A DNA stretch of 64,000 nucleotides from an uncultured Pseudomonadota bacterium (GTDB lineage: Bacteria; Pseudomonadota; Alphaproteobacteria; JACZXZ01). The stretch spans positions 1,120,001 through 1,184,000 of the forward strand of contig CAVVLJ010000016.1 in NCBI GenBank assembly GCA_963749075.1, read 5' to 3'. Under the pieces are notes generated by a model. The model did not search any database and was not told the DNA's origin. It saw only the letters and a list, made by a program, of their open reading frames with translations. Positions 40,810 to 59,836 of this stretch are shown here, in pieces; positions within the stretch are counted from its first letter, which is position 1, and every line of letters begins with the position of its first letter. The position numbers and the translations under genes were made by a program.

Positions 40810-41994
40810 TTGCCCGGAAATTCGAAGCCTTCGCGGCCCTGGCACCCTGGTCCGTTGACGCGCGCCGCCCAGAAGGATGCGCGCGGCGCCGCGGAGGTAG
40901 ACGCGGCTACCGTACTCGGCGGCCTGCCCGACGTGGTTCTCGTCATCGGCCCGAAGGACGACATCCGTTTCGTCAACATGGCGGGCGAGGACTTCTTCGA
41001 CGCCAGCGCCTTCTGGCTCGCCGGCCGTCCGCTTGCCGATCTGCTGCCCGCCGACAGCCCGCTCTTCGCCCTCATAGCGCAGGTGCGGGCCGGGCTCTCC
41101 AGCGTCTCGGAATACGGCGTCATCCTTCACACCCCGCGCATCGGCGAGCATTTCGTGACGGCTCAGGTGGCGCCGCTGCCGGAGCAGCCGCTATCCGTCA
41201 TCGTCTCGCTGCACGAGCAATCGATCGCGCGCAAGATCGACCACCAGCTCACCCACCGCAACGCGGCGCGCTCGGTGACCGCGATGGCCTCGCTCCTGGC
41301 GCACGAGGTGAAGAACCCGCTCTCCGGCATCCGCGGCGCGGCACAGCTCCTCGAGCAGTCGGCCACCGCCGAGGACCGCGAGCTCACGCGCCTCATCTGC
41401 GACGAGACCGACCGCATCTGCGCCCTCATCGACCGCATGGAGGAATTCTCGGACGGGCGGCCGATCGAGAAGGGGCCGGTCAACATCCACGCGGTGCTCG
41501 AGCATGTGCGCAAGGTGGCGCAGAACGGCTTCGCCCGCCACGTGCGCTTCGTCGAGTCCTACGATCCCTCGCTGCCGGCGGTCGAGGGCAACCGCGATCT
41601 CCTCGTGCAGCTCTTCCTCAACCTGGTCAAGAACGCCGCCGAGGCGACACCCGACCAGGGTGGCGAGATCGTCCTCGCGAGCGCCTATCAGCACGGCGTG
41701 CGCCTCGCGGTCGCGGGCAGCGAGAGCCGCCTTGAGCTCCCGCTCGTGGTCAGCGTGCAGGACAACGGCGACGGCATTCCCGAGGACCTGCGCTCGCATC
41801 TCTTCGATCCCTTCGTCACGACCAAGAACAACGGCAGCGGCCTGGGCCTGGCGCTGGTCGCCAAAATCGTCGGCGACCACGGCGGCATCATCGAGTTCGA
41901 CAGCGAGCCGCGGCGCACCGTCTTCAAGGTCATGCTGCCCATCCATCGCCCGGCCGGCGCCGCAAGCGAGGCCGGCCAAGGAGACGAGCCGTGA
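40810..41994 (+). CDS. ntrB: nitrogen regulation sensor histidine kinase NtrB (start uncertain)
   Basis: PAS; [43 protein letters not shown]. Confidence 0.95.
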
Positions 41995-43433
41995 GCGATG
42001 CCACCATCCTCGTGGCGGACGACGATCGCGCCATCCGCACGGTGCTGAACCAGGCCCTGGGGCGTGCCGGCTACAGCGTGCGCACCACCGGGAACGCGGC
42101 CACGCTGTGGCGCTGGGTGTCGGACGGGGAGGGGGATCTCGTCATCACCGACGTGCTGATGCCGGACGAGAACGGCCTCGACCTCATCCCGCGCATCAAG
42201 AAGGTCCGCCCCGACCTGCGCATCATCGTGATGAGCGCGCAGAACAACCTTCTCACCGCCGTGAAGGCGACCGAGCGCGGCGCCTTCGAGTATCTGCCCA
42301 AGCCTTTCGACCTGCGCGAGCTCGTCGGCATGGTCGAGCGCGCCCTCACCAGCCGGCCCGCCAACGAGGACACCGCCTCGCCGCTCGACACCGAGGAGCA
42401 GCTTCCCCTCATCGGCCGCTCGGCGGCGATGCAGGAAATCTACCGCGTGCTCGCGCGCCTCATGGGCACGGACCTGACCGTGACGATCACCGGCGAGTCG
42501 GGCACCGGCAAGGAGCTCGTCGCGCGCGCGCTCCACGACTACGGCAAGCGCCGCGCCGGCCCCTTCGTCGCCATCAACATGGCGGCGATCCCGCGCGAGC
42601 TCATCGAGAGCGAGCTCTTCGGCCATGAGAAAGGCGCCTTCACCGGCGCCAACGCCCGCTACGCCGGCCGCTTCGAGCAGGCCGACCGCGGCACGCTCTT
42701 CCTCGACGAGATCGGCGACATGCCGCTCGAGGCCCAGACCCGGCTCCTGCGCGTGCTGCAGGCGGGCGAGTACACCACGGTCGGCGGCCGCACGCCCATC
42801 CGCGCCGACGTGCGCATCATCGCCGCCACCCACCGCGACCTGCGGCAATACATCCGCCAGGGCCTCTTCCGCGAGGACCTGTTCTACCGCCTGAACGTCG
42901 TGCCGATGAGGCTGCCCCCCTTGCGCGAGCGCAGCGAGGACATCCCGGCGCTCGCCCGCCACTTCCTCAACCGCGCCGCCCAGCAGGGCCTGCCCGCCAA
43001 GACCATCGACCAGGTCGCCATGGAGCGCTTGAAGCAGCACCGCTGGCCGGGCAACGTGCGCGAGCTCGAGAACCTCATCCAGCGGCTCGCAGCGCTCTAT
43101 GCCCAGGAGGTCATCGGGGTCGACGTGATCGAGGCCGAGCTCGCCGACGTGAGTCCGCACGCCGCGGGCGCCAAGGCGCCCGTCGACGACAGCTTAGGCA
43201 CCTCCGTAGAGCGCCACCTCAAGGATTATTTCGCGGCGCACAAGGACGGTCTCCCGGCGGCCGGGCTCTACGACCGCATCCTGAGGGAGGTCGAGCGGCC
43301 GCTGCTCTCCTTGAGCCTCGCGGCCACGCGCGGCAACCAGATCAAGGCGGCCCGGCTCTTGGGCCTCAACCGCAACACCCTGCGCAAGAAAATCCGCGAG
43401 TTGGACATCCAGGTTTTGCGCGGCGTAAAATAG
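41991..43433 (+). CDS. ntrC: sigma54-type response regulator NtrC
   Basis: REC; [14 protein letters not shown] intact, [16 protein letters not shown]; Fis [21 protein letters not shown]. Confidence 0.96.
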
Positions 43434-43483
43434 CGCCTTTCCACGGATGAGGCGGACTCCCCCGCCTGGCCGGGATGCGGACC

Positions 43484-45811
43484 ATGACGGGCAGCAAGAG
43501 CGAGCGCAACGCCGCCAAGCCGATCGGCAAGTGGACGAGCTGGTTCGCCCGCAGCGGACTGCGGCGCACGCTTGCCATTGCGCTCGCCGCCTGTGCGGCA
43601 CTCTCCGGGCTCGCCACCTACGCGGCGTTGACCAAGGCGCTGCCGGTCGAGGTTTCGCCCAACCTCATTCTCGTCCTCCTCTACATCGACCTCATCTTTC
43701 TCCTCCTCCTCGTCGCGGTGGTGGCGCGGCGCATCACGATGATCTGGATGGAGCGGCGCCGCGGCTCGGCCGGCTCGCGGCTTCACGTCCGGCTCGTGGT
43801 GCTCTTCAGCCTGATCACGGTGGCGCCCACCATCATCGTCGCCGTCTTTTCCAGCTTCTTCTTCAACTTCGGCCTGCAATCGTGGTTCAGCGAGAAGGTG
43901 CGCACGGCGATCCAGGAGTCCGTGGCGGTGGCCAACGCCTATCTCGACGAGAACGTGCGCAACATCAAGGCCGACGCGACCTCGCTCGGCGCCCATCTGC
44001 AGGGCAGCCTCGCGCTGCTGGAGAGCGGCGATCCCCAGAAGATCGCCCAGTTCGAGCGCATCCTCAACGACGACGTCGACCAGCTCTCGCTCACCGAGGC
44101 GGTGATCTTCGACGATTCGTTCCGCGTGCTCGCGCGCGCGCGCCTGAGCTTCGACATGGAGCAGGAAGGCATTCCCGACCAGGCCCTGGACAAGGCGAAA
44201 AGCGGCGAAGTGGCGCTGCTCAGGAGCGAGGCGGACGACCGGGTGAGGGCGCTCCTGCGCATCGAGCCGCCGAGCGGCACCATCATGCCGAACCTCTATC
44301 TCTTCGTCGGCCGCTTCGTGGAGCCGGGCGTCCTCCAGCACGTCGAGCGCGCCCAGGCCGCGCTCAGCGATTACCGCGCGCTCGAGGTCGCGCGCGCCGA
44401 CATCGAGATCACCTTTGCCCTCATCTTCGGCGTCGTGGCGCTCCTGCTGCTGCTCGCCGCCGTGTGGGTCGGGCTCTATTTCGCGACCCAGCTCGTGCGC
44501 CCCATCTCGGTGCTGATCGCCGCTGCCGAGCGCGTGCGTGCGGGCGATCTCTCGGCGCGCGTGCCCGAGGCGGACGCCAAGGCGGACGAGATCGGCTCCT
44601 TGAGCCGCGCCTTCAACCGCATGACCGGCCAGCTCGAGGAGCAGCGCCGCGAGCTCGTCGAGGCCAACCGCCAGCTCGACGCGCGCCGCCGCTTCACCGA
44701 GGCGGTGCTCTCCGGCGTCTCCGCGGGCGTCATCGGCCTCGATCCGCGCGGCCGGGTCAACCTGCCGAACCGCTCGGCCTGCGAGCTGCTCTCGACGAAC
44801 GCCGAGCATCTCATCGGCCATCTCCTCGAGGAGGTGGTGCCCGAGGTGCAGGAGCTTCTGCGCGAGGCGCGCCGCCGCCCGCGGCAGCTCGTCGAGTCCG
44901 AGCTCAAGATCGCGCGCAAGGGCCGTACCCGCACGCTTCTGGTACGCATCGCGGCGGAGCGCGTCAATCGCGAGACCAAGGGCTTCGTCGTCACCTTCGA
45001 CGACATCTCCGAGCTCCTCGCCGCCCAGCGCACGGCCGCCTGGGGCGACGTGGCGCGGCGCATCGCGCACGAGATCAAGAACCCGTTGACGCCGATCCAG
45101 CTCTCGGCCGAGCGGCTCAAGCGCAAGTACCTCAAGGAGATCGTGAGCGACCCGGAGACCTTCCTCAACTGCACCGAGACGATCGTGCGCCAGGTCGGCG
45201 ACATCGGCCGCATGGTCGACGAATTCTCCGCCTTCGCGCGCATGCCGGCGCCCGTCATGCGCGAGGAGGATCTGGTCGAGCTCTGCCGGCAGGCGCTGTT
45301 CCTCCAACGCCAGGGCAATCCCGACATCGCCTACGAGAGCGTGCTGCCGGAAGGCCCGCTCCGCTTTCGCTGCGACGCGCGGCAGCTCGGCCAGGCGCTG
45401 ACCAACCTTCTCAAGAACGCCGCGGAGTCGATTCACGCCGAGCCCGCGCGGCCGGAGGACGGCCCGGCGCAGCGCGGCACGATCGCGCTGCGCCTCGCCA
45501 CGGGCGAGGGCTACGCCGAGGTCGCCGTCGAGGACAACGGCAAGGGCCTGCCGGCGGCCGACCGGGAGCGGCTGACGGAGCCCTACGTGACGACGCGCGA
45601 GAAGGGCACGGGCCTGGGGCTCGCCATCGTGCGCAAGATCATGGAAGATCATCACGGCGACCTGGTGCTCGGCGATCGCGAAGGCGGCGGGGCGCGCGTG
45701 GTGCTGCGCTTCGCACTTGCCGAGCCGCCGCCCGCCGAGGACGAGGAAGAGAAGGGGACGGAGAGCAGCGCGCCGTCCAGCGTCGAACCGGCAACCGCCC
45801 ATGGCTCATGA
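43484..45811 (+). CDS. ntrY: sensor histidine kinase NtrY
   Basis: TMs, GSRLH.RLV.LF, HAMP DEIG.L.RAFN.M, PAS, AWGDVARRIAHEIKNPLTPIQLSAERL, EPYVTTREKGTGLGL. Confidence 0.95.
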   Translation: MTGSKSERNAAKPIGKWTSWFARSGLRRTLAIALAACAALSGLATYAALTKALPVEVSPNLILVLLYIDLIFLLLLVAVVARRITMIWMERRRGSAGSRLHVRLVVLFSLITVAPTIIVAVFSSFFFNFGLQSWFSEKVRTAIQESVAVANAYLDENVRNIKADATSLGAHLQGSLALLESGDPQKIAQFERILNDDVDQLSLTEAVIFDDSFRVLARARLSFDMEQEGIPDQALDKAKSGEVALLRSEADDRVRALLRIEPPSGTIMPNLYLFVGRFVEPGVLQHVERAQAALSDYRALEVARADIEITFALIFGVVALLLLLAAVWVGLYFATQLVRPISVLIAAAERVRAGDLSARVPEADAKADEIGSLSRAFNRMTGQLEEQRRELVEANRQLDARRRFTEAVLSGVSAGVIGLDPRGRVNLPNRSACELLSTNAEHLIGHLLEEVVPEVQELLREARRRPRQLVESELKIARKGRTRTLLVRIAAERVNRETKGFVVTFDDISELLAAQRTAAWGDVARRIAHEIKNPLTPIQLSAERLKRKYLKEIVSDPETFLNCTETIVRQVGDIGRMVDEFSAFARMPAPVMREEDLVELCRQALFLQRQGNPDIAYESVLPEGPLRFRCDARQLGQALTNLLKNAAESIHAEPARPEDGPAQRGTIALRLATGEGYAEVAVEDNGKGLPAADRERLTEPYVTTREKGTGLGLAIVRKIMEDHHGDLVLGDREGGGARVVLRFALAEPPPAEDEEEKGTESSAPSSVEPATAHGS

Positions 45812-47204
45812 CATCCTGATCGTCGACGACGAGGCGGACATCCGCCTGCTCATCGCGGAAATCCTGCGCGACGAAGGCTACGACACGCGCGAGGCGGTCA
45901 ACAGCACCGAGGCCTTCGCGGCCATGAAGGCGCGCCGCCCGAGCCTCGTCGTGCTCGACATCTGGCTGCAGGGCAGCGAGCTCGACGGCCTCGGCATTCT
46001 CGAGGTGGTGCGCGAGAGCCATCCCAGCGTTCCGGTGCTGATGATCTCGGGGCACGGCACGATCGAGACCGCGGTCAATGCCATCAAGCGCGGCGCCTAC
46101 GACTTCATCGAGAAGCCCTTCAAGACCGACCGGCTCCTGCTCATGGTCGAGCGCGCCATCGAGGCGGCGCGGCTTAAGCGCGAGAACGAGGAGCTGCGCG
46201 TGCGCGCGGGCGGCGAGGTCGAGCTGATCGGCCGCTCGCCGGTGGTGAGCCAGCTCCGCCAGTCGATCGACAAGGTGGCGCCGACGGGGAGCCGCGTGCT
46301 CATCACCGGCCCGGCGGGCTCGGGCAAGGAGGTGGTGGCGCGCCTCATCCACGCGAGCTCGCGGCGCTCGGAGGGGCCGTTCATCGTGCTCAACTGTGCC
46401 ACCATGCGGCCCGAGAACCTCGAGAGCGAGCTCTTCGGCGTCGACGGCGGCGGCAAGGAGGGCGGCGTCGGCAAGGTCGGCACGCTCGAGCAGGCGCACA
46501 ACGGCACGCTCCTCCTCGACGAGGTCGCCGACATGCCGCTCGAGACCCAGGGCAAGATCGTGCGCGCGCTGCAGGAGCAGACCTTCGAGCGCGTCGGCGG
46601 CAAGACCCGCGTCAAGGTCGACGTGCGCGTCATCGCCTCGACCAACCGCGATCTGCGCGAGGAGATCGTCGCCGCGCGCTTCCGCGAGGATCTCTATTAC
46701 CGGCTCAACGTGGTGCCGCTCCGCGTGCCGGCGCTGCGCGAGCGGCGCGAGGACATTCCGTTGCTCGCGCGCGCCTTCATGACGCGCTACGCGAGCGCCT
46801 CCGGCCTCTCGGAGCGGCAGATCGGCGAGGACGCCATGGCGGCGCTGCAGTCCTACGACTGGCCCGGCAGCGTGCGCCAGCTGCGCAACGTCATCGAGTG
46901 GCTGCTCATCATGGCGCCGGGCGAGGCGCGCGATCCCATCCACGCCGACATGCTGCCGCCCGAGATCGGCGCCATCGCACCTCCCGTGCTCAAGTGGGAC
47001 CGCGCCGGCGAGATCATGGCGCTGCCCTTGCGCGACGCGCGCGAGCTCTTCGAGCGGCAGTATCTCCTCGCCCAGGTGACGCGCTTCGGCGGCAACATCT
47101 CGCGCACGGCGGCCTTCATCGGCATGGAGCGCTCCGCCCTCCATCGCAAGCTCAAGACGCTCGGCGTGCATACGAGCGACAAGGGACCGGCCTATGACGC
47201 TTAA
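45801..47204 (+). CDS. ntrX: response regulator NtrX
   Basis: [39 protein letters not shown], no GAFTGA loop, [12 protein letters not shown]. Confidence 0.95.
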
Positions 47205-47206
47205 GC

Positions 47207-47300
47207 CGGACGACGGACGGCGGACGACGGAGGACAGACGCTTCCGGTTCGCCAATCGAATTCCGTCTTCTGTCGTCCGTCGTCCGTCGTCCGCCGTCTG
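47207..47300. repeat. two inverted arrays of a 7-bp unit (CGGACGA / TCGTCCG) forming a long hairpin
   Basis: CGGACGA CGGACGG CGGACGA CGGAGGA CAGA ... TCTG TCGTCCG TCGTCCG TCGTCCG CCGTCTG; fills the whole ntrX-dat spacer. Confidence 0.85.
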
Positions 47301-48164
47301 ATGTCCCGCCTCGCCTACGTCAACGGGCGCTACCTGCCGCACCGGGCGGCGGCGGTCCACATCGAGGACCGCGGCTACCAGTTCGCCGACGGCGTCTACG
47401 AGGTGATCGCGGTCGAGGGCGGACGGCTCGTCGACGAGGAGCCGCATCTCGAGCGCCTGGCGCGCTCGCTGGGCGAGCTCAGTATCCGTCCGCCGATGCC
47501 GCCCGCGGCCCTCAAGTCGGTGATGCGCGAGGTGCTGCGCCGCAACCGCGTGCGGAACGGCAGCATCTACATCCAGATGACGCGCGGGGTGGCGCCGCGC
47601 GACCATCCCTTCCCGGCGGCGAGCGAGACCTCGGTCGTGATGACGGCCAAGCGCCTCCGCCGGCAGCCGCGGCACGCGGTCGAGGACGGCATCCGAGTCA
47701 TCACGCTGCCGGACAACCGCTGGGCGCGCTGCGACATCAAGTCGGTGAGCCTGTTGCCGAACGTGCTCGCCAAGCAGCGCGCGCGCGAGGCGGGGGCCTA
47801 CGAGGCGTGGTTCGTCGATGCCGCAGGCCTCGTCACCGAGGGCAGCTCGACCAACGCCTGGATCGTCACCAAGGACGGCAAGCTCGTCACGCGCTCGGCC
47901 AACCATGCCATCCTCAACGGCATCACGCGGCAATCGACCATCAGGCTCGCCCACGAGAACGGCCTTCTCCTGGAACAGCGCGCCTTCAGCGTGGCCGAGG
48001 CCCAGGCCGCGCGCGAAGCCTTCCTCACCAGCACCACCTCCCTCGTGCTGCCGGTGACCGAGATCGACGGCAAGGCGATCGGCAACGGCAAGGCCGGCTC
48101 CTTCGCCCTCAAGTTGCGCGCCATCTATCTCGACTACGCGGGCGGTGCGGGGGCGCGCGCGTGA
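47301..48164 (+). CDS. dat: D-amino acid aminotransferase (class IV PLP)
   Basis: YVNG.Y, EDRGYQFADGVYEV, RW.RCDIKSV.LLPNVL, TEGSSTN, IL.GITR, EAFLTST. Confidence 0.9.
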   Translation: MSRLAYVNGRYLPHRAAAVHIEDRGYQFADGVYEVIAVEGGRLVDEEPHLERLARSLGELSIRPPMPPAALKSVMREVLRRNRVRNGSIYIQMTRGVAPRDHPFPAASETSVVMTAKRLRRQPRHAVEDGIRVITLPDNRWARCDIKSVSLLPNVLAKQRAREAGAYEAWFVDAAGLVTEGSSTNAWIVTKDGKLVTRSANHAILNGITRQSTIRLAHENGLLLEQRAFSVAEAQAAREAFLTSTTSLVLPVTEIDGKAIGNGKAGSFALKLRAIYLDYAGGAGARA

Positions 48165-48856
48165 GCGGCACGGGCGGGCTCGAGGGGCGCGCGGCGATTC
48201 CCTTGCCGCGCGCGCTGCTCTTCGATTGGGACAGCACCCTCGTCGACAACTGGCGCAGCATCGAGGAGGCGCTCAACGTCACCCTCGTGGCCATGGGACA
48301 GCGGCCCTGGACGGCGGAGGAGACGCGCGCGCGGGTGCGCGCCTCGCTCCGCGAGAGCTTTCCCGAGCTCTTCGGCGAGCGCTGGGTCGAGGCGCGGCAA
48401 ATTTTCTACGAGGCCATCACCGAGCGGCATTTGACGCACCTCGCCCCGCTGCCCGGTGCCGAGGAGATGCTCGCCGAGCTCCACGGGCGCGGCCACTATC
48501 TCGGCATCGTGAGCAACAAGACCGGAGCGCTCCTGCGCAAGGAGGCGGCGCATCTCGGCTGGGAGCGCTACTTCGGCCGCCTGATCGGGGGAGGGGACGC
48601 CGAGCGCGACAAGCCCGATGCGGCGCCGGTGGCGCTGGCACTCGCGGGCAGCGGCATCGCCCCGGGCGCCGAGGTGTGGCTCGTCGGCGATACGGCGCTC
48701 GACATGCTCTGCGCGCGCAATGCCGGCTGCGTCGCCGTGCTCATCGCAGGCGCCGGCCAGGGGCGCGACGACTTCTCGGCGGCCCCCCCGGCGCGCCAGG
48801 TCCCCGACTGCTTTTCGCTGGGCGCCCTTGTCCGCGAACTCGCCGAGCCCATATAA
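48161..48856 (+). CDS. HAD-superfamily hydrolase (phosphoglycolate phosphatase-like)
   Basis: LFDWDSTLVD, VSNK, KPD, VGDT..D; GTG overlaps the dat stop. Confidence 0.88.
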   Translation: MSGTGGLEGRAAIPLPRALLFDWDSTLVDNWRSIEEALNVTLVAMGQRPWTAEETRARVRASLRESFPELFGERWVEARQIFYEAITERHLTHLAPLPGAEEMLAELHGRGHYLGIVSNKTGALLRKEAAHLGWERYFGRLIGGGDAERDKPDAAPVALALAGSGIAPGAEVWLVGDTALDMLCARNAGCVAVLIAGAGQGRDDFSAAPPARQVPDCFSLGALVRELAEPI

Positions 48857-48937
48857 GGCTGGTCGCACTCCGGGACGGCCGTTCGCCGGTCGTTCCGAGG
48901 GATAGCCGCATGGTCAAATATAAGAGGGGATCGATCC

Positions 48938-49189
48938 ATGTCCTCCGAGAAGACGCAAAACTTGCAGGATGTATTCCTGAATCACATACGGAAAAATAAG
49001 ACGCCGGTTACGATATTTCTTGTCAATGGCGTGAAATTGCAAGGAATCGTGACTTGGTTCGACAACTTCTCTGTTCTCCTCCGGCGTGATCACCATTCGC
49101 AGCTCGTTTACAAGCATGCGATCTCCACTGTGATGCCGACGGGCCCGATTCAGCTCTTCGAGCAGGACAAGGAGGTCGCCGAGGCGTGA
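48938..49189 (+). CDS. hfq: RNA chaperone Hfq
   Basis: [38 protein letters not shown]. Confidence 0.98.
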
Positions 49190-49190
49190 T

Positions 49191-50516
49191 TTGCCGCCGC
49201 TAGAGCGCATGGAGGCCGCGCGCGGCGAGGGCGGGGCGACAGTTCACGCTCTTGTGATCCATCCGGCTCCCAAGTCCCACGCGAGCAACGGCAGGACTCC
49301 CGAGGCGCGGCTCGAGGAGGCGGTGGCGCTTGCCCGCGCCATCGGCCTTGCCGTCGTTCATGCCGAGGTGGTGCGCATCGCCGAGCGCCGCCCGGCGAGC
49401 CTTTTCGGCAAGGGGACCGTAGCCCGCCTCGGCGAGCGCGTGGCCGCGGAGGAGGCCGCCGTCGTGGTGGTCAACGGCGCGCTCAGCCCGGTGCAGCAGC
49501 GCAATCTCGAGCGGGCGTGGAAGTGCAAGGTCATCGACCGCACGGCGCTCATCCTCGAGATTTTCGGCGAGCGGGCGCGCACGCGCGAGGGCCGCCTCCA
49601 GGTCGAGCTCGCCCATCTCTCCTACCAGAGGAGCCGCCTGGTGCGCAGCTGGACGCATCTCGAGCGCCAGCGCGGCGGCTTCGGCTTCCTCGGCGGGCCG
49701 GGCGAGAGCCAGATCGAGCTCGACCGCCGTCTCATCGGCGAGCGCATCATCAAGATCAAGCGCGAGCTCGAAAGCGTCGTCAGGCGGCGCGAGCTGCAGC
49801 GCGCCGCGCGCCGGCGCGTGCCCTATCCGGTGGTGGCGCTCGTCGGCTACACCAATGCCGGCAAGTCGACGCTCTTCAACCGCCTGACCAACGCCGCGGT
49901 GCTGGCGGAAGACCTCCTCTTCGCGACCCTCGATCCGACCATGCGCTCGCTCGAGCTGCCCTCGGGCCGCAGCGTCATCCTCTCCGACACGGTCGGCTTC
50001 ATCTCGGAGCTGCCGGTCGAGCTCGTCGCCGCCTTCCGCGCCACCCTCGAGGAGGTGCGCGAGGCCGATACGATCGTGCACGTGCGCGATGCGGCACACC
50101 CCGAGAGCGAGGCGCAGAAGGAGGACGTCCACACCGTGCTGAAGGCACTCGGCCTCGGCAGCGCGGTCGACGAAGGGCTCATCGAGGTGCTCAACAAGAT
50201 CGATTGCCTCTCGCGCGAGGAGCTGCAGCGCCTGCGCGAGGTTGCCCTGCGCAGCAACCGCAGCGTGATCCCGCTCTCCGCACTCAGCGGCGAGGGCTGC
50301 GACGCGCTCCTTCGCGTCCTCGACGAGCGGCTCGCAGAGGGGCGCGGCATCGTGGCCCTCGAGGTGCCGCTTGCCGACGGCGCCACGCTCGCCTGGCTCT
50401 ACCGGCGCGGCGAGGTGCTGAGCCGCACCGACGACGAGGCGCACGCCCATCTCACCGTGCGGCTCGAGCCCGCCGACCAGGCCCGGCTCGCGCACCGGGG
50501 CGTGCGCGCGATCTGA
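49191..50516 (+). CDS. hflX: GTPase HflX (start 49191 TTG or 49209 ATG)
   Basis: LSPVQQRNLE, DRT.LILEIF, HLERQRGG, GYTNAGKS, LFATLDPT, DTVGF, NKID. Confidence 0.96.
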   Translation: MPPLERMEAARGEGGATVHALVIHPAPKSHASNGRTPEARLEEAVALARAIGLAVVHAEVVRIAERRPASLFGKGTVARLGERVAAEEAAVVVVNGALSPVQQRNLERAWKCKVIDRTALILEIFGERARTREGRLQVELAHLSYQRSRLVRSWTHLERQRGGFGFLGGPGESQIELDRRLIGERIIKIKRELESVVRRRELQRAARRRVPYPVVALVGYTNAGKSTLFNRLTNAAVLAEDLLFATLDPTMRSLELPSGRSVILSDTVGFISELPVELVAAFRATLEEVREADTIVHVRDAAHPESEAQKEDVHTVLKALGLGSAVDEGLIEVLNKIDCLSREELQRLREVALRSNRSVIPLSALSGEGCDALLRVLDERLAEGRGIVALEVPLADGATLAWLYRRGEVLSRTDDEAHAHLTVRLEPADQARLAHRGVRAI

Positions 50517-50540: not shown

Positions 50541-51281
50541 TCAGCCGCCGTCCTCCTTCGCGCATTGCACGAGCGCCGCGATGCGGCGGAGCTCCGCGTC
50601 CGCCCCGCCCGCGGCTGCCGCGGCCGAGCGGAATGCTATGCCGTGGGCGGCGAGGAAACGCTTGATGTCGCCGGCGGGCACCGCGACGCTCTCGTCGGGC
50701 CGGGCGACGAATTGGCCGATGATCATGCCTCGGAGGATGCCCGCCTCGTCGAGGACGGGTCCGCCGCTGTTGCCCTCGCGGAGGCTCGCCTCGATCACCA
50801 GCACGCGGCGGCCCGACGGCACGGCCGCCATGCCGACCACGGTGCCCTCCGTCAGCACCGCCGCCTCGGGATTGTCGGGGACCAGGCCGTAACCGATGAC
50901 CGTCACGGAGCTGCCGGTGGGCAACGCCGGGCGGCGGGGGAGTAGGGCCGCCGCCGCGCGCGCGCCGGACGTGCTGAGAAGCGCCAGGTCGCGCGCCGCG
51001 TCGAGTGCTACGAGCTTGGCGTCCTGCGGCGGCCGCTGCGGCTGCCAGAGCGAGATGCGGCGGCACGCGGCCACCACATGCGCGCTCGTCAGGAGATAGC
51101 CGGCACTCGACACGAAGAAGGCGGTGCCGCTGCGCACGAGGGGCGCCGACGGCGTGGTCCCGGCGGCAAGCGCGCTTGCGAGGGTGCTCGACAGAAGCCA
51201 AAGAGCAAGCACGGCCCGGGCGTGCGCGGCCCGCCGGCGCCAGGCTGCCGCACGCCCCGCGGCCGCCGCGGCGCTCCTCAC
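50541..51281 (-). CDS. exported trypsin-like serine protease, 246 aa
   Basis: GTG overlaps the kinase stop; Arg-rich n-region plus hydrophobic signal ending ALA; SGTAFFV, LLTSAHVV (His), DLALL (Asp), GNSGGP (Ser). Confidence 0.85.
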   Translation of the reverse strand: MRSAAAAAGRAAAWRRRAAHARAVLALWLLSSTLASALAAGTTPSAPLVRSGTAFFVSSAGYLLTSAHVVAACRRISLWQPQRPPQDAKLVALDAARDLALLSTSGARAAAALLPRRPALPTGSSVTVIGYGLVPDNPEAAVLTEGTVVGMAAVPSGRRVLVIEASLREGNSGGPVLDEAGILRGMIIGQFVARPDESVAVPAGDIKRFLAAHGIAFRSAAAAAGGADAELRRIAALVQCAKEDGG

Positions 51282-53425
51282 ATTGCCCAGATGCCGCGCC
51301 GCGCCGCCTTCGCCTGCTGCTCGGCAACGCGGTACTTCGAGGGTGCGCCGGGCCGCACGCGGGCGGCCCCATTGAGCACGGCGGCCTCGGCGAGGTCGAC
51401 TTTGCCCACGTGGCACTCGAAGGAGCGCCCCGGCCGCGCGAAGCAGCTCACGCGATTGCCCATCTGCTCGATGTAGTGCTGCATGGCGGTCGCGAGCTGT
51501 CCGGTCTCGCCGCGAATGCCGTAGAGGTTGACGACCTTTCCGGCCACCACCAGCGCCGCCGAGTTGAGCACGGCGCTGACCTCGCCCTCGATGTCCGGGG
51601 TCGCGCCCGAGACGGCAGGCGGTTGCGCGGTGTTGGGCGGCAGCGAGGCGACTTGCGGCGGATGCGTTTGCTCGCTCGACGGCAGTCCCGTCGCCGCGGG
51701 CGCTTGCGAGCCCGATGCCGCGGGCGATGGCGTGCCTGTGGCGGCGGGCTGGGAGCCGGCGGCCGGAGCGGCCGGTTGCGGCGCCAAGGACGTGTTCGTC
51801 GCGATCACCAACGAGTTGTCCGGCTTCGCAGGCGCCTGGATGGCGGCGGGCGGCTGCGCCGGCGGATTCGTGCTCGCGACGGGCGTCGTGGGCGCGGCTG
51901 GCGTCGCCGTCGGCGCAGCTGCGGATGCCGGCGACGGCGCCGCGGCCGGCGGCGATGCCGAGGCTACGGGAGTTGACGGGGGGGCGGCGGGCGGTGCTGT
52001 CGTGGCCGGCTGCGTCGGCGCCGTTGCCGGCGGCGAGGCCGAAGCCGCGGGGGCAGCTGGCGGCGCGGTTGCACTCGGCGATGATGTGGCGGCCGCAGGC
52101 GCCGGTGCCGCGGGCGGCGAAGCGGGCGGCGCCACGGCGCTTGCCGGCGGCGAGGCCGGGGCGCTCGGCAGCGGGGAGGCGGGCGCCTCCTTGGCGGCCG
52201 GCGCCGGCTCCGCCGCCGCGCTCCGAAGCGGATGAGCCGGCGCCGGCGGCTCTTGCGTTTCCTTGGCCGCGGAGGCGGTGGCCGCCGGCGGCGCCTGCTC
52301 GGCGACGACGGGCTTGGCCGTCGGTCCCGATGCCAGGACCACGTAGCCGAGCCCGGCGAGCAGCACCGCCGCGACGCCGCCGAGGACCATGGCCGGCATT
52401 CGCATGGCCGGCGGCAGCGCGCTCAGGAGGGGGAGGGTCGCTTTCTTCGCCCCTTGTCCCGGGCGGTCGGCGACCGCGCTCTGGGCGGCGGTGGCCTGCG
52501 CGGGCGCCTCGAGCGACAGCGAGCCGCCGGTGCTCATCAGCCGGGTGGCCGGCGGCGGCAAGGCACCCCAGCGCGCCACCACCGTCTCCTTGACGATGTC
52601 GGCGGCCTCGCCCTGGATCGCCGCGGCGCCGAGCGCGCGGCCGAACTCGTCGACGGAGGCGTAGCGCTCCTCGGGTTTCTTGGCCAGCGCCCGCATCATC
52701 ACGCTCTCGACGTTGGGATCGAGGTCGGGCACCTGGCCGGCGAGGGGCGGCGGTCGCTGCTCGACCTGGGCGCGGATGAGCTCGTATTCGCTGGTGGCAT
52801 TGAAGGCGCAATTGCCGGAGAGGAGCTCGTAGAGCACCATCGAGAGGCTGTAGAGGTCGCTGCGCGCGTCGCCCTCGGCACCCTGGAGCTGCTCCGGCGA
52901 CATGTAGGCGAGCGTGCCGATGAGGTCGCCCTGCCGCGTCATGCGCTGCGAGCCCTGGATGCGGGCGATGCCGAAATCCATGATCTTGAGCAGCCCGCTG
53001 TCGGTGACCATGAGATTGGCGGGCTTGATGTCGCGGTGGATGACGCCCATGCGGTGAGCGTAGGAGAGGCCGGCCACCGTCTGCGCCATGATGGCGAGGC
53101 ACTCGCGCACGCCGAGGCGGCCGGCCTTGCCGAGGATCGCCTCGAGCGTGTTGCCGCGCACCAGCTCCATCACCATGAAGAGCTCGTCGCCTTCCTTGTG
53201 CAGCGAAAAGAGCGTGGTGATGTTGGGGTGGTTGAGGCGGGCGAGGTTGGTGGCCTCGCCGCGGAAGCGCTCGAGGAAGCCGCGGTCGCGGCTGAACTCC
53301 GGGCGCAGCGCCTTGATCGCCACGGGCCGGCCGAGCAGCTGATCCACCCCGGCATAGACCTCGCCGATGCCGCCCTTGCCGAGCTGCTCGTGGATCTCGT
53401 AGGGGCCGATGACGCGAAAGCTCAT
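51278..53425 (-). CDS. Hanks-type Ser/Thr kinase with TM, Pro/Ala linker and C-terminal SNase-like domain, 715 aa
   Basis: LGKGGIGEVY, VAIK, HRDIKPAN, DFGIAR, GTLAYMSPEQ, SDLYSL; TM AMVLGGVAAVLLAGLGYVVL; C-terminus LYGI...VSC...C...DLAEAAVLNGAA...Y..AEQQAKAARRGIW. Confidence 0.9.
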   Translation of the reverse strand: MSFRVIGPYEIHEQLGKGGIGEVYAGVDQLLGRPVAIKALRPEFSRDRGFLERFRGEATNLARLNHPNITTLFSLHKEGDELFMVMELVRGNTLEAILGKAGRLGVRECLAIMAQTVAGLSYAHRMGVIHRDIKPANLMVTDSGLLKIMDFGIARIQGSQRMTRQGDLIGTLAYMSPEQLQGAEGDARSDLYSLSMVLYELLSGNCAFNATSEYELIRAQVEQRPPPLAGQVPDLDPNVESVMMRALAKKPEERYASVDEFGRALGAAAIQGEAADIVKETVVARWGALPPPATRLMSTGGSLSLEAPAQATAAQSAVADRPGQGAKKATLPLLSALPPAMRMPAMVLGGVAAVLLAGLGYVVLASGPTAKPVVAEQAPPAATASAAKETQEPPAPAHPLRSAAAEPAPAAKEAPASPLPSAPASPPASAVAPPASPPAAPAPAAATSSPSATAPPAAPAASASPPATAPTQPATTAPPAAPPSTPVASASPPAAAPSPASAAAPTATPAAPTTPVASTNPPAQPPAAIQAPAKPDNSLVIATNTSLAPQPAAPAAGSQPAATGTPSPAASGSQAPAATGLPSSEQTHPPQVASLPPNTAQPPAVSGATPDIEGEVSAVLNSAALVVAGKVVNLYGIRGETGQLATAMQHYIEQMGNRVSCFARPGRSFECHVGKVDLAEAAVLNGAARVRPGAPSKYRVAEQQAKAARRGIWAM

Positions 53426-54330
53426 GAGGGACCTCCGGCCGGAGGTGCAGCGCTCAGGGAGCGCGTGATGCCGGCCGGCGACGCCGGCGGCGGCAAGTCG
53501 CTCAAGGCGAAGACGCCGACCGAGACGTTGTCGTGGCCGCCGGCCGCGAGTGCCGCGGCGATCAGCGCTTCGCAGGCGCCTGCGGGCGGCAGGTGCGCTA
53601 TGGTCTCGCCGATCGCGGCGCTCTCCACCAAGTCGCTGAGGCCGTCCGAGCATAGCACGAAGATGTCGCCCGGAGAGAGCGGCATGCCGTCGCGCCAGAT
53701 CGCCGGATCGGCATGCGGCGCCGTGCCGAGCGCCTTGAGGATGACGTTGCGGTCGGCGCGGCTGCGGGCCTCCTCGGCGCTGATGGCTCCCATGCGCACG
53801 AGCTCGCCGACGAGGGAATCGTCGTGGCTGATCTGGCGGAGCTCGCTGCCGCGCAGCAGATAGGCGCGGCTGTCCCCGATGTGTCCGAGGAATGCCCGAT
53901 CGCCGAGCAGGGCGAGCGCCGTGCAGGTCGTCCCCATGCCGGCGCACACCGGATCGCTGCGGCTCTTCTCGAAGATCGCGCGGTTCGCGGCGGTGAAGCC
54001 CGCTGCGAGCGCCTTCTGCGGACTGCCGGCGTCGGCGAAATAGACGCGCATCAGCGTCTCGGCGGCAAGCAGGCTCGCCACCTCGCCCGCGGCGTGTCCG
54101 CCCATGCCGTCGGCGACCACCGCGAGGAGCCCGCGGCCGGTGGCGATGTCGCCCTCGCGCGGGATGACGTAGGCCACGCTGTCCTCGTTGTTGCTGCGCA
54201 CGCGGCCGGGATCGCTGCGCATGGCACCGCTGACGAAGAGCCCAGTGCCCGCAGGCCTTTCCGCCGTCACCATCGCCATGGGTCGTGCGCTCGCTCCGCC
54301 ATCCGCCGCAGCCTCGCTCGCCCGGCTCAC
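53422..54330 (-). CDS. PP2C/Stp1-family Ser/Thr phosphatase
   Basis: SDPGRVR.NNED, VADGMGGH.AGEVAS, GMGTT, HIGDSRAY, LCSDGL, GGHDN. Confidence 0.93.
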   Translation of the reverse strand: MSRASEAAADGGASARPMAMVTAERPAGTGLFVSGAMRSDPGRVRSNNEDSVAYVIPREGDIATGRGLLAVVADGMGGHAAGEVASLLAAETLMRVYFADAGSPQKALAAGFTAANRAIFEKSRSDPVCAGMGTTCTALALLGDRAFLGHIGDSRAYLLRGSELRQISHDDSLVGELVRMGAISAEEARSRADRNVILKALGTAPHADPAIWRDGMPLSPGDIFVLCSDGLSDLVESAAIGETIAHLPPAGACEALIAAALAAGGHDNVSVGVFALSDLPPPASPAGITRSLSAAPPAGGPS

Positions 54331-56240: not shown

Positions 56241-56327
56241 GGCGGCCGATGGCCTGGGCAGCCGGCTTGACTTGAGCGGGCGATCGCGGGGCTAATCGCC
56301 GGCGACGAACGCGGGGTTGGGTGCCGC

Positions 56328-56939
56328 ATGGAGATTTCCCTCGATCACGCCGCCATCCTCGAGCTCGCTGCCGTCGTCGTGATCGACGTCGTCCTCTCGG
56401 GCGACAACGCCGTGATCCTCGGCCTGGCAACCATGGGCTTGCCCGAAGCCAGGCGCGGACGCGCGCTTACGGCCGGCGTGGCGCTCGCAGCACTCCTCCG
56501 CGTGGCATTGGCGCTCGTCGCCGTGCCGCTTCTCGCCGTCATCGGCCTCACGCTCGCCGGCGGCATCCTTCTGCTTGGCGTGGCCTGGAAGATCTGGCGC
56601 GAGGTGCGCGAGGCATCCCGCCGGGCGGGCGGCGGGCAGCACCAGGCGGCGCGCGGTGCCGCCAAGAGCGACACCGCCGCTATCCTGCAGATAGCACTCG
56701 CCGACCTCGCCATGTCGCTCGACAACGTGCTCGCCGTGGCCGGGGCCGCGCACCGCCACCCCTGGGTCATGGTCAGCGGCCTGGCACTCTCGGTGGCGCT
56801 CATGGCCTTCGCGGCACGGCTCGTCGCGCGCTTCCTCGAGCGCTATCCCTGGCTCGTCTATCTCGGCCTCGCCGTCATCACGGCGGTGGCCCTCAAGATG
56901 ATCTGGGAGGGCAGTGCCGACGTGCTGCGCGCGATTTAG
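56328..56939 (+). CDS. TerC/YjbE-family membrane protein
   Basis: IDVVLSGDNAVIL, LRV, GGILLL.VAWK, I.LADLAMSLDNVLAVAGAA, GLALSV.LM. Confidence 0.92.
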   Translation: MEISLDHAAILELAAVVVIDVVLSGDNAVILGLATMGLPEARRGRALTAGVALAALLRVALALVAVPLLAVIGLTLAGGILLLGVAWKIWREVREASRRAGGGQHQAARGAAKSDTAAILQIALADLAMSLDNVLAVAGAAHRHPWVMVSGLALSVALMAFAARLVARFLERYPWLVYLGLAVITAVALKMIWEGSADVLRAI

Positions 56940-56972
56940 CGGCGGCCCCGGTTGTGTGCTAGCCTGCCAGGC

Positions 56973-57812
56973 ATGCTCATGCGACACGACGCGGCCGAGG
57001 TCGCCGCCATCATGCGCGAGGTGGCGGCCGAGGAGATACTCCCGCGCTTCGGCAAGCTCGCCAAGGCCGATATCCTGCCCAAGGGCGGACGCGGCGATTT
57101 CGCGACGACGGCCGATCTCGAGGCCGAGCGCGCGCTGGCGCGGCGGCTCGCAGCACTCCTGCCGGGCTCGCTCGTGGTGGGCGAGGAGGCCGCGGCGAAA
57201 GACCCAGCACTTCTGCAGGCGATCGCCGGCGAGGCCCCGGTGTGGATCGTCGATCCGCTCGACGGCACGCACAATTTCGCGCAAGGGATCGCGCATTTCA
57301 CCGTGATCGTGGCGCTGGCGCGCGCGGGCGCGACGGTCGCCGGATGGATTCACGATCCGCTCGCGGACCGCACGGCCGCGGCGGAGGAGGGGGCCGGCGC
57401 CTGGGAAGCGGGGCGCCGCCTCGCGGTCGCTCCTCCGGCACCGCTCGCCGAGATGCGCGGCGCCATTTACGGCAAGGCGGGGCGGCCCGGCATCTCCCCG
57501 CGGCTCGACGAGGTGCGGCAGCGCTTCGCGGGCACGACGAACAGCCGCTGCGCCGGGCACGAGCACTTGGCGCTCGCCCGCGCGGAAAGCCATTTCGCGC
57601 TCTTCAGCCGGCTTCTCCCATGGGATCACGCGGCGGGCGCCCTCATCCATGCCGAGGCGGGCGGCTACAACGCCTGCTGGGACGGCACGCCCTACCGGCC
57701 GACGCGCCACACGGGCGGCTTGCTCCTTGCCCCGGATGCCGCGAGCTGGACGGCACTTGCCGAGCTTCTCCTGGTGCGCGAGCCGGCGGCCGCGGCGCCG
57801 GGGGCTCAATAG
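56973..57812 (+). CDS. inositol monophosphatase family protein
   Basis: TTAD..AE, GEE, WIVDPLDGT.NF, PWDHAAGALI..EAGG. Confidence 0.92.
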   Translation: MLMRHDAAEVAAIMREVAAEEILPRFGKLAKADILPKGGRGDFATTADLEAERALARRLAALLPGSLVVGEEAAAKDPALLQAIAGEAPVWIVDPLDGTHNFAQGIAHFTVIVALARAGATVAGWIHDPLADRTAAAEEGAGAWEAGRRLAVAPPAPLAEMRGAIYGKAGRPGISPRLDEVRQRFAGTTNSRCAGHEHLALARAESHFALFSRLLPWDHAAGALIHAEAGGYNACWDGTPYRPTRHTGGLLLAPDAASWTALAELLLVREPAAAAPGAQ

Positions 57813-57881
57813 CCCATCTCGCTCAGCAACGCCTCCGGGCTCTGAAGGGGCACACAGATCGAGAGGGCTTGCAGTGCCGTC

Positions 57882-57997
57882 GTGGGTCCTTCGAGACGGG
57901 CCTTCGGCCCTCCTCAGGATGAGGTGAATTCGCGTGTGGCAGAAAGACTTCACCTCGTCCTGAGGAGCGAGCGCAGCGAGCGTCTCGAAGGACCCAC
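57882..57997. repeat. palindromic intergenic repeat, copy 3
   Basis: 17-bp terminal inverted repeats GTGGGTCCTTCGAGACG/CGTCTCGAAGGACCCAC; shares loop GCGTGTGGCAGAAAGAC with copy 1. Confidence 0.87.
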
Positions 57998-58068
57998 CGC
58001 GGCCGGTCCGGGACAGCTGCGCGCAGGGCGACATTACGATCGGCAAGTATATTCATAAGATCAACCGC

Positions 58069-58935
58069 TTATTGACCTGTCTTGCTGCGCTCCTCGAGCT
58101 TCGCCAGGTCCCACAGCGCGTCCATCTCGGCGAGCGAGGCGTCGGCGGTCGCCTTGCCGCGCTCGGCCAAGAGGGATTCCACCCGGCGGAAGCGGCGCTC
58201 GAACTTGGCGTTGGCCCGGCGCAGCGCCGCCTCGGGGTCGAGGGCGAGCCGGCGCGCCAGATTGACGAGGCTGAAGAGCACGTCGCCGAGCTCGTCCTCG
58301 AGCCGCGCGGGCGGGGCCGCGGCGGCAAGCTCGGCGTTGAGCTCGCGCATCTCTTCCGCGACCTTGTCGAGGATGGGTGCGAGCTCGCCCCAATCGAAGC
58401 CGACGCGCGCCGCGCGGCGCTGCAGCTTGAGCGCGCGCGTAAGCGCGGGGAGGGCGAGGGCGACGCCGTCGAGGGCGCTCGCCGCCCGCTCGCCGGCCGC
58501 TCTCGCCTTGGCCGCCCGCTCGGCCGCCTTGTGGCCCTCCCAGGCCAGGCGCTGGCTCTCGCCGTCCTTGATGTCCTCCTCGCCGAAGACGTGAGGATGT
58601 CGCCGTATCATCTTGTCGGCGATGGCTCCGGCAATGGCGTCGAAATCGAAGGTGCCGGCCTCCTCGGCAATGCGTGCGTGGAAGACGACCTGGAGGAGGA
58701 GGTCGCCGAGCTCGTCGCGCAAGCCCTCGAGGTCCTGGCGCTCGATGGCGTCCGCGACCTCGTAGGCCTCCTCGATCGTGTAGGGGGCGATGGTCGCGAA
58801 GCTCTGCGCCGCGTCCCACGGACAGCCGCGCTCCGGATGGCGGAGACGCGCCATGATCTCGATGAGGCGGTCGATGTTGCGCCGGTCGATGTTGCGCCGG
58901 TCGATGTTGCGCCGGTCGATGTTGCTCTGGGACAT
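58069..58935 (-). CDS. mazG: nucleoside triphosphate pyrophosphohydrolase MazG
   Basis: LR.PE.GCPWD..Q, IEEAYEV, DELGDLLLQVVFH, RRHPHVF, GFDW, DELGD.LF, N.KF.RRF; start set at MSQS. Confidence 0.95.
   Translation of the reverse strand: MSQSNIDRRNIDRRNIDRRNIDRLIEIMARLRHPERGCPWDAAQSFATIAPYTIEEAYEVADAIERQDLEGLRDELGDLLLQVVFHARIAEEAGTFDFDAIAGAIADKMIRRHPHVFGEEDIKDGESQRLAWEGHKAAERAAKARAAGERAASALDGVALALPALTRALKLQRRAARVGFDWGELAPILDKVAEEMRELNAELAAAAPPARLEDELGDVLFSLVNLARRLALDPEAALRRANAKFERRFRRVESLLAERGKATADASLAEMDALWDLAKLEERSKTGQ
58868..58925. repeat. 15-bp coding tandem repeat, nearly 4 copies (NIDRR) at the MazG N-terminus
   Basis: CGGTCGATGTTGCGC x3 followed by CGGTCGATGTTGC. Confidence 0.92.
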
Positions 58936-59032
58936 GGTCAAGGGCTGCTGCCGGAGGGGGAGGGGCATGGTTGCGCCGCGCGACACTCATAGCGCAGGAT
59001 CGGCCGCCGGGAAAGCAAGGAGGGTGGCCAAG

Positions 59033-59836
59033 ATGAGCGAGCCCGTCGTCCTTTGCGCGCGCGACGCGCGCGGTGTCGCTACCGTGACGCTCAACCGTCC
59101 GGCCGTGAACAACGCCTATGACCGCGCCATGATCGCAAGCCTCGCGGAGGCGCTCGCCGGCCTCGCCGCCGATCCCGCGGTGAGGCTCGTGGTGCTGCGC
59201 GGCGCCGGCCGTCACTTCCAGGCGGGCGCCGACCTCGGCTTCCTCCAGGAGGCGGCCGCCATGCCGCCCGAGGAGAACCTCGAGGTGTCGCGTCTCACGG
59301 TCGCCGCCGTGGGCGCCCTCTACCGCCATGCCAAGCCGACCCTGGCGCTCGTCCACGGCGGCTGCTTCGGGGGCGGCGCCGGCATGGTGGCCGCCTGCGA
59401 CATGGCGATCGCCACCGAGGATGCCACCTTCTCGATCACCGAGGTGCGCTGGGGTGTGACGCCGGCGCCGATCCTGCCGATGCTGGTGGCGAAGATCGGG
59501 CTCGGCGGTGTGGCGCGCTACGCGCTCACGGCGGAGCGCTTCTCCGCCGCGGAGGCGCTGCGGCTCGGCCTCGTGCAGCAGCTTTGCCCGCCGGGCAGCC
59601 TCGACGTGGCGGCGGCACCGCTCATCGACAGTCTTCTCATGGCGGCACCCGGGGCGGTCGCCGTCACCAAGCGCATCGCCCACGAGATCGCGGCAGGGGC
59701 GCTCGCGGGCGCGGACGCTGCCGAGAGGCTCGCGGCAGAGGCCGCGGCGCGGCGCCGCTCGCCCGAGGCCGCCGAGGGCCTCGCCAGCTTCTTCGCCAAG
59801 CGCAAGCCGAGCTGGTATCCGGGCGGCAAGCCTTAG
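59033..59836 (+). CDS. enoyl-CoA hydratase/isomerase (methylglutaconyl-CoA hydratase-like)
   Basis: VATVTLNRP.V.NA, G.HFQAGADL, VHG.CFGGG.G, FSITEVRWG, EA.EGL.SF..KRKP.W. Confidence 0.9.
   Translation: MSEPVVLCARDARGVATVTLNRPAVNNAYDRAMIASLAEALAGLAADPAVRLVVLRGAGRHFQAGADLGFLQEAAAMPPEENLEVSRLTVAAVGALYRHAKPTLALVHGGCFGGGAGMVAACDMAIATEDATFSITEVRWGVTPAPILPMLVAKIGLGGVARYALTAERFSAAEALRLGLVQQLCPPGSLDVAAAPLIDSLLMAAPGAVAVTKRIAHEIAAGALAGADAAERLAAEAAARRRSPEAAEGLASFFAKRKPSWYPGGKP

Follow-up and report, generated by a model that had tools for sequence, protein, structure and literature searches.

A Hanks-type Ser/Thr kinase of an uncultured alphaproteobacterium ends in a domain with a predicted nuclease fold and a replaced nuclease active site. 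The kinase gene lies on the minus strand of a 64,000-nucleotide stretch of contig CAVVLJ010000016.1 (hereafter, the window; coordinates given without a locus handle are positions in it), and its product consists of a cytoplasmic kinase domain, a single transmembrane (TM) segment, a low-complexity tether and a C-terminal ectodomain of about 100 amino acids. The structural model and the profile comparisons described below show that this ectodomain has the fold of staphylococcal nuclease (SNase) and is homologous to SNase proteins, beyond the mere sharing of a fold, and in the alignments all the canonical Ca2+-binding and catalytic positions of SNase are replaced, both in this protein and across its family. 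We consider it moderately probable that the domain is a minimal derivative of the SNase oligonucleotide/oligosaccharide-binding (OB) fold, probably stapled by a disulfide, that no longer cleaves nucleic acid and acts outside the cytoplasm in binding or sensing.

Fold and homology of the ectodomain

The ectodomain comprises residues 612-715 of the kinase (IEGEVSAVLNSAALVVAGKVVNLYGIRGE...VSC...FEC.VGKVDLAEAAVLNGAA...AEQQAKAARRGIW). Taken alone, its sequence carries a weak signal. The Pfam SNase model (PF00565) matches only the final ~37 amino acids, with an E-value of 0.029 and 15.3 bits, below the gathering cut-off of 21 bits; NCBIfam has no family for the ectodomain, its best match being to a 'hypothetical protein' model at E 0.036; and sequence searches of the PDB, with the domain alone and with the profile of alignment A1, give weak matches to SNase and SND1 on the C-terminal helix (best E 0.047). 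The nearest clusters in the ESM Atlas bear SNase or thermonuclease names, with cosine values of 0.88-0.89 that fall under the 0.9 level and count as a lead only. The question of the fold is settled by structure prediction.

Given a 114-amino acid query and the 59-row alignment A1, AlphaFold2 returned a model of the ectodomain with a mean predicted local distance difference test value (pLDDT) of 96.1 and a predicted template modelling score (pTM) of 0.86. In the 114-residue numbering, the model consists of strands at 11-20, 23-26, 29-33 and 36-38, a helix at 42-53, strands at 57-63 and 67-72, a helix at 77-83, a strand at 87-89 and a helix at 95-106, that is, a five-stranded OB barrel with three helices in the b1-b2-b3-a1-b4-b5-a2-a3 order of SNase. 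When the model is compared with the PDB using Foldseek, the best 50 matches listed include only SNase variants and SND1/Tudor-SN (E from 7.4e-6, template modelling scores 0.63-0.71). VIA-align, which is independent of Foldseek and was run against 48,161 representative chains, places SNase itself first (1sta_A: Z 13.4, root-mean-square deviation (rmsd) 2.3 Å, 106 of the 114 residues aligned), followed by 4qmg_A (Z 12.8), 3bdl_A (Z 12.7) and 2wac_B (Z 12.4); the SN-like halves of extended Tudor domains come at Z 9.4-4.8, and the first other OB fold appears at Z 3.4.

Homology is indicated by profile comparisons within the same genome, which encodes three Pfam-positive SNase paralogues. An hhalign comparison of the family profile with one of these, P0158 (35.7 bits on PF00565), gives a probability of 97.2% and an E-value of 4e-11 over 105 columns, and the comparison with a second paralogue, P0156, gives 88.3% and 2.9e-6; P0156, in turn, matches the 149-residue chain of the Staphylococcus aureus nuclease at E 1.2e-5. 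A profile built from nine ectodomain sequences (alignment A3) retrieves two SNase paralogues in this genome (E 3.5e-6 and 5.9e-6). A homodimer prediction for the ectodomain, made without controls, scored 0.01, where the mark is 0.42; it speaks neither for nor against dimerisation.

Loss of the catalytic residues

In the S. aureus SNase, the Ca2+ ligands are D21, D40 and T41, and the catalytic and phosphate-binding residues are R35, E43 and R87. In the hhalign profile alignments, from which all residue equivalences were read without superposition, the D19/G20/D21/T22 segment (DGDT) corresponds to N621/S622/A623/A624, R35 to N633, D40-T41 to R638-G639, and E43 to T641, or to E640 if the alignment is shifted by one residue; in the D-x-Y-G-R motif, Y85 corresponds to F669 and R87 to C671. 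By this mapping, the Ca2+ ligands and the R35/E43/R87 set that mark an active thermonuclease are replaced in the kinase. The same holds among 200 aligned domains of the family: 136 of them have Ala and 34 have Gly in the D21 column, Arg occupies the R35 column in only 36, the D40 column is a mixture (Glu 43, Gln 27, Val 24), and the R87 column contains Cys in 199.

This cysteine is half of a pair. Family columns C60 and C70, which are C661 and C671 of the kinase, are each kept in 199 of the 200 domains and, in the model, face each other on the b4-b5 hairpin (strands 57-63 and 67-72). We infer a Cys661-Cys671 disulfide, which would suit a periplasmic location; the extracytoplasmic placement is argued from the one TM segment together with this invariant pair on adjacent strands. 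Three loops of SNase, namely the omega loop after E43, the loop with K84/Y85/R87 and the loop with Y113/Y115, are turns of 3-5 residues in the secondary structure of the model, as judged against the SNase numbering, and the ectodomain is only ~104 residues long because these active-site loops are trimmed. Eleven columns of the 59-row alignment are invariant or nearly so, which we count as selection for another role.

That the domain is an active nuclease with a non-canonical active site is hardly credible. In the 11-member clade to which the kinase belongs (see below), all but one of the domains keep E640 of the GI.GE motif, and members of the family with two tandem copies of the domain carry in IMG the automatic name 'endonuclease YncB (thermonuclease family)'; however, the positions of D21, R35, D40 and R87 hold non-catalytic residues here and are variable, or Ala or Cys, family-wide. 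As a description of what the family does, the endonuclease name is probably incorrect.

These results largely bear out a preliminary description of the kinase, made from the DNA sequence, which had proposed a TM segment, a long Pro/Ala/Thr linker and a C-terminal domain of the SNase fold that had exchanged DGDT for NSAA, the catalytic Arg for Asn and IDAPE for IRGE and had lost D.YGR. The open reading frame (ORF) was confirmed and the domain located to residues 612-715; the AlphaFold and Foldseek analysis returned the SNase OB fold rather than a non-OB fold, with the pLDDT, Z score and hhalign probability given above; and the hhalign alignments agree with the proposed replacements, which hold at the catalytic positions of the aligned homologues.

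The three SNase paralogues in the genome (proteins P0156, P0157 and P0158; loci L001:1195-2010 (-), L002:1435-1929 (-) and L003:1408-1974 (-)) all lack part of the canonical catalytic set as well. P0156 retains DGDT and DRYGR and has GILAPK in place of IDAPE; P0157 has DGST and AVAPG; and in P0158 the corresponding motif is DATH, R35 is replaced by Lys, and the Cys pair of the ectodomain family is present.

A family of SNase-like domains and its partners

An exhaustive phmmer search of 1.84 billion cluster representatives found 635 proteins with the domain at E<=0.001, of which 150 pass <=1e-10 and 1 passes <=1e-30. Copy number and architecture were counted in 153 retrieved proteins, taken from the best 150 of the 635 plus earlier relatives: 105 contain one copy and 48 contain two adjacent copies, and in 85 of the 153 a hydrophobic segment comes before the domain. 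The domain has no dedicated Pfam or NCBIfam model, and the Pfam SNase model recognizes few of the relatives (22 of 59 at E<=1, the best at 0.0082; 3 of 69 at E<=0.001). The family is of considerable size, has no name and is in part wrongly annotated.

The family is rare among genomes. Only 4 of the 61 genomes of relatives (G000, G001, G002 and G008) have matches above 100 bits; 28 of the 61, among them G050 (flagged as unpublished), match at the looser threshold of E<=1e-5, but these are mostly ordinary SNase relatives. When 401 genomes from across the class were sampled and no more than 11 candidates scored in each, 6 matched at E<=1e-18. The genome of the window holds a single copy of the domain, and a single-protein search for related loci returned two, both from metagenome-assembled genomes named 'Alphaproteobacteria bacterium'.

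The partners of the domain are varied. It is joined to Ser/Thr kinases (P0003, P0004, P0005, P0019, P0023, P0024, P0054, P0064, P0136 and the kinase of genome G079), to TIR_2 (P0011 and P0021), to DUF4145 (P0017), to vWA domains with or without PG_binding_1 (P0006, P0059, P0065, P0075, P0114 and a protein of locus L036) and to SH3_3 (14 of 69 in alignment A2). It also occurs on class A penicillin-binding proteins (PBPs): P0098 combines Transgly and Transpeptidase domains, 8 PASTA stretches and the SNase-like domain, and an 846-amino acid frame (L040:8667-11204 (-)) combines Transgly, Transpeptidase and the SNase-like domain. Other partners are TPR, Ank, LCCL and F5/8 type C domains, and the tandem proteins P0008, P0009 and P0015 have no Pfam match at all.

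Several large secreted proteins of 1,235-2,229 amino acids (L036:2723-9409 (+), P0114, P0065 and P0075), which have several vWA domains, end in the domain; their additional modules include F5/8 type C (L036 and P0114), TPR (P0114) and PG_binding_1 (P0075). In the tandem proteins (alignment A4, e.g. P0008, P0009 and P0052), the pair of copies is followed by a conserved His/Trp/Tyr-rich stretch with the consensus GWGYYDHxHHWHxAPxRY, which has no Pfam match. The tandem model of P0052 has a pLDDT of 82.3 and a pTM of 0.63; an SND1-like pairing of the two copies was considered and rejected, given that the superposition of both domains on SND1 has an rmsd of 19 Å over 218-223 residues.

A clade joined to cytoplasmic outputs

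The position of the kinase ectodomain within the family was analysed in a tree of 200 domain segments (FastTree, LG+gamma, 114 trimmed columns, midpoint root; two segments shorter than 80 amino acids dropped). It falls into an 11-leaf clade with a support of 0.93, whose members are found only on kinases (8, including the one in the window), TIR proteins (2) and a DUF4145 protein (1), and in all 11 of them a hydrophobic segment separates the cytoplasmic domain from the ectodomain. The clade shares the motifs VLDS.A..V.GK.VNL(Y/F)GI.GE.G and, at the C-terminus, ...AE.EAR.A..G(V/I)W; the window kinase alone within the clade has Asn for the Asp of VLDS. On P0064 and on the kinase of G079 the domain is more distantly related, and kinases have therefore been joined to it more than once.

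The best argument for a sensor over a mere anchor comes from this clade, in which one type of ectodomain is connected across the membrane to different cytoplasmic outputs. The anchor alternative holds that the domain passively fixes its host protein to peptidoglycan or to an outer-membrane structure and thus sets location only, with no regulation of the kinase; we consider it unlikely, although much of the family architecture would fit it. Of the 105 proteins with one copy, 91 have the domain as their very C-terminal part, a Pro/Ala-rich stretch immediately precedes it in 48 of the 153 proteins, its partners are very diverse and include many enzymes and adhesive modules (vWA, SH3_3, PG_binding_1, TPR, Ank, LCCL and class A PBPs), and the 245-residue tether in the window kinase far exceeds the need of a membrane-proximal sensor. 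However, a passive anchor leaves unexplained why every partner in one clade should be a cytoplasmic output (kinase, TIR or DUF4145) coupled through a TM segment. Also against it is the divergence between the window kinase and that of G079, a genome from another family of the class: the catalytic domains are 59% identical but the ectodomains only 34%, and the faster change of the ectodomain suits a ligand-tracking sensor.

Several observations weigh against a sensor role. Among the partner families listed, the first 25 per scan, there is no histidine kinase, chemoreceptor or cyclase, and most of the partners (vWA, SH3_3, TPR, PBPs) are not signalling outputs, which, along with the predominantly C-terminal placement, fits a passive anchor equally well. 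Only 2 of the 5 other genomes of the genus have a strong match, and the system is therefore dispensable. The residue mapping comes from profile alignment and not from structural superposition, and the proposed sensor step itself is drawn from architecture.

Possible ligands

The preliminary description had further suggested that the ectodomain binds nucleic acid or another polyanion in the periplasm, a part that is not supported: charge is not conserved, the loops of the nucleotide pocket are trimmed, and the partners are mostly envelope and cell-wall modules. That a dead nuclease still binds nucleic acid or a polyanion and senses periplasmic DNA or RNA, as might arrive with phage or by conjugation, is in our judgement decidedly unlikely. 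The SNase descent and the OB fold speak for it, as do the basic character of the query domain, with a net charge of +7 over the last 100 residues, and the occurrence of its closest relatives on TIR and DUF4145 proteins, both immune-type modules. PADLOC PD-T4-6 models also match the kinase, with E-values down to 1.2e-93, yet they do so mainly through the generic kinase domain, many of the models match, and they match Hanks kinases generally.

The charge, however, is not conserved. The other kinases of the clade have net charges of -1, +4, +4, +5, +3, +4 and 0 over the last 100 residues, the -1 belonging to P0003, the closest orthologue, and the 0 to P0054; across 200 domains of the family the median is -2, and in the tandem proteins both copies are acidic, with a median of -4. 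The K84/Y85/R87, Y113/Y115 and omega loops are short turns in the model, many of the partners are cell-wall modules, and no defence genes were seen adjoining the operon in the window. A ligand derived from the cell envelope or peptidoglycan, or a periplasmic protein partner, is more likely than nucleic acid, and an envelope ligand is favoured because the domain accompanies class A PBPs, PASTA, PG_binding_1 and SH3_3.

The kinase operon

The kinase gene stands third in a row of four genes that run in one direction and overlap or abut at their ends (Table 1). Its ATG at 53425 overlaps the stop codon of the PP2C gene as ATGA, and its own stop codon (51280..51278) is overlapped by the GTG start of gene 4; the three start/stop overlaps span 51278-51281 (GTG/TGA), 53422-53425 (ATG/TGA) and 54327-54330 (GTG with the stop). 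An overlap at every junction suggests that the four genes are translationally coupled. The genes upstream of 56271 are on the opposite strand. Two minus-strand ORFs in that region, 56292..58046 and 58061..59683, were considered as operon genes and rejected; neither has a Pfam match, and codon-position guanine-plus-cytosine content favours the plus-strand frames.

Table 1. Features of the kinase operon in the window, in the order of transcription, with the parts of the kinase below its gene
Feature	Position	Strand	Basis
Gene 1, FHA-TM-Trypsin_2 protein, 581 amino acids	54327..56072	minus	Pfam and hydrophobicity
Gene 2, PP2C-type Ser/Thr phosphatase, 302 amino acids from the longest start	53422..54330	minus	PF13672, 8.8e-14
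Gene 3, Hanks-type Ser/Thr kinase with the SNase-like domain, 715 amino acids plus stop	51278..53425	minus	
Cytoplasmic kinase domain, residues 9-255	52661..53401	minus	Pfam Pkinase PF00069, E 1.6e-51
Single TM segment, residues ~346-364, preceded by basic residues	52334..52390	minus	Kyte-Doolittle
Low-complexity tether, residues 367-611 (245 amino acids)	51593..52327	minus	Composition
SNase-like OB-fold ectodomain, predicted non-catalytic, residues 612-715 (104 amino acids)	51281..51592	minus	Model and profiles
Codons of Cys661 and Cys671 and the intervening hairpin	51413..51445	minus	Alignment and predicted strands
Gene 4, Trypsin_2 protease with N-terminal signal-like hydrophobic segment, 246 amino acids	50541..51281	minus	Pfam

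The kinase domain contains the motifs that define a Hanks kinase, namely VAIK (35), HRDIKPAN (130), DFG (150) and an APE-like SPE (176). The Kyte-Doolittle profile over 19 residues peaks at 2.34 at residue 346, and this is the only hydrophobic segment of the protein. In the tether, Ala makes up 32% of the residues, Pro 26%, Ser 11% and Thr 9%, and Tandem Repeats Finder detects no tandem repeats in its DNA; its length varies among the orthologues, which measure 679-684 amino acids as whole proteins. A Pfam scan finds no PASTA domain in the kinase at E<=10, so that it does not qualify as a PASTA kinase, and the NCBIfam model NF033483, which aligns with the kinase part alone, scores 312.8 bits and so falls short of its cut-off of 450.

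The product of gene 1 has a cytoplasmic FHA domain (residues 30-99), a TM segment (~182-200) and a periplasmic Trypsin_2 domain (394-550) in which the His, Asp and Ser motifs are present. The same order of genes, with gene 4 in the same place and hflX adjoining, is found in G001, a genome of the same genus. In G079, genes for an FHA-TM-trypsin-like protein (34% identity to gene 1, E 6e-79), a PP2C phosphatase (56% identity) and the kinase follow each other in the same order, the kinase ATG again overlaps the PP2C stop as ATGA, and the fourth gene encodes a lipobox protein instead of a protease. The FHA-TM-trypsin-like protein, the phosphatase and the kinase thus form a conserved three-gene unit across two families of the class.

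The retention of the FHA-TM-trypsin gene with the kinase in two families bears on the alternative that the ectodomain is a protein-docking module, like the SN domains of SND1/Tudor-SN, and binds either the trypsin-like domain that the FHA protein has in the periplasm or the adjoining secreted protease. If the ligand is a protein, the conserved FHA-linked protease domain would be the first candidate. SND1 SN domains are near the top of the structural comparison (4qmg_A, from an MTDH-SND1 complex, has 27% identity over 105 residues), and the vWA, TPR and Ank partners of the family are themselves protein-binding modules. However, the fourth gene, which encodes the secreted protease, is not conserved, and most members of the family have no protease in the same protein; we regard docking of this kind as quite unlikely.

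The FHA-TM-trypsin-like protein of G079 (L037:2655-4232 (+)) has GADGGP where the window protein has GNSGGP. The nucleophile Ser is thus replaced by Asp, and the protease may therefore be inactive there, to judge from the motif. Past the end of the operon in the window, on the other strand (40801-50513 (+)), are ntrB/ntrC/ntrY/ntrX-like two-component genes and an aminotransferase-like gene, and the same plus-strand stretch includes hfq (48938..49189) and hflX (49191..50516), all named from their translations; the same neighbours are present in G001.

A possible signalling scheme

FHA domains are established readers of phospho-threonine. If the ectodomain is an extracytoplasmic sensor, the operon could operate as follows: a periplasmic or envelope ligand would bind the domain and change the clustering or conformation of the kinase, which would autophosphorylate; the FHA domain of the membrane-anchored protease would then dock on the phospho-threonines of the kinase, and the PP2C phosphatase would reset the system.

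Comparison with known systems

Non-catalytic SNase folds are already known in eukaryotes, and Hanks kinases with other ectodomains are known as well; what is new here is a non-catalytic SNase fold as the C-terminal ectodomain of bacterial Hanks kinases. The ligands of most bacterial Hanks-kinase ectodomains are not known outside the Gram-positive PASTA kinases. An SNase-like ectodomain of a bacterial kinase was not found in literature searches or in term look-ups in PMC7159879, PMC12419801 and PMC6213207, with subscription journals and supplements outside their scope; a review of Hanks kinases from 2018 lists PASTA and beta-propeller domains as sensors, and the word 'nuclease' does not occur in it (PMC6213207). 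The present analysis defines a compact, confidently modelled class of ectodomains for proteobacterial kinases, in which an enzyme fold appears to be recycled as a non-enzyme, and the conserved FHA-protease/PP2C/kinase module offers a setting for testing it. The domain also ends class A PBPs and TIR proteins, so that its ligand would inform several protein families.

The ectodomain shares with the S. aureus Nuc and Bacillus subtilis YncB (PF00565) the predicted fold, the order of its elements, homology and the C-terminal helix motif A...RRGIW. It differs from them in being ~104 rather than 149 residues long, as in the S. aureus chain, in its invariant Cys pair, in falling below the Pfam cut-off, in the replacement of the Ca2+ ligands and of the Arg/Glu/Arg set, and in its place at the C-terminus of envelope and signalling proteins with several domains. 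In SND1/Tudor-SN and the SN halves of extended Tudor domains, the SNase fold is a binding scaffold. The SN domains of SND1 are not known to retain the nuclease residues, and these proteins are structurally about as close to the ectodomain model as SNase is (see the Z scores above), but they are eukaryotic, cytoplasmic or nuclear, and without the Cys pair.

The operon resembles the PpkA-PppA-Fha1 set of type VI secretion, in which a PP2C phosphatase and an FHA protein likewise accompany a membrane kinase whose ectodomain is periplasmic. Here, in contrast, FHA is fused through a TM segment to a periplasmic trypsin-like domain, and the scanned neighbours of the operon include no type VI genes.

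The closest parallel in distribution is PASTA, the extracytoplasmic C-terminal module of Hanks kinases (PknB/PrkC) and of PBPs (PBP2x). Its occurrence on PBPs and Ser/Thr kinases gave PASTA its name. According to the review, PASTA kinases are likewise co-transcribed with a PP2C phosphatase, and PASTA repeats bind peptidoglycan and thereby promote dimerisation of the kinase (PMC6213207). The same source describes PASTA as a beta3-alpha fold (PMC6213207), which is unrelated to that of SNase, and the hosts of the present domain are Proteobacteria; the parallel is thus one of distribution, and peptidoglycan binding by the SNase-like domain would be an analogy drawn from it. Extending the analogy, we put forward as a tentative and rather unlikely idea that the family is an SNase-derived, Cys-stapled Gram-negative counterpart of PASTA, a wall or muropeptide sensor on kinases and class A PBPs that would also drive TIR and DUF4145 outputs and would so connect damage to the envelope with phospho-signalling and with effectors of the immune type.

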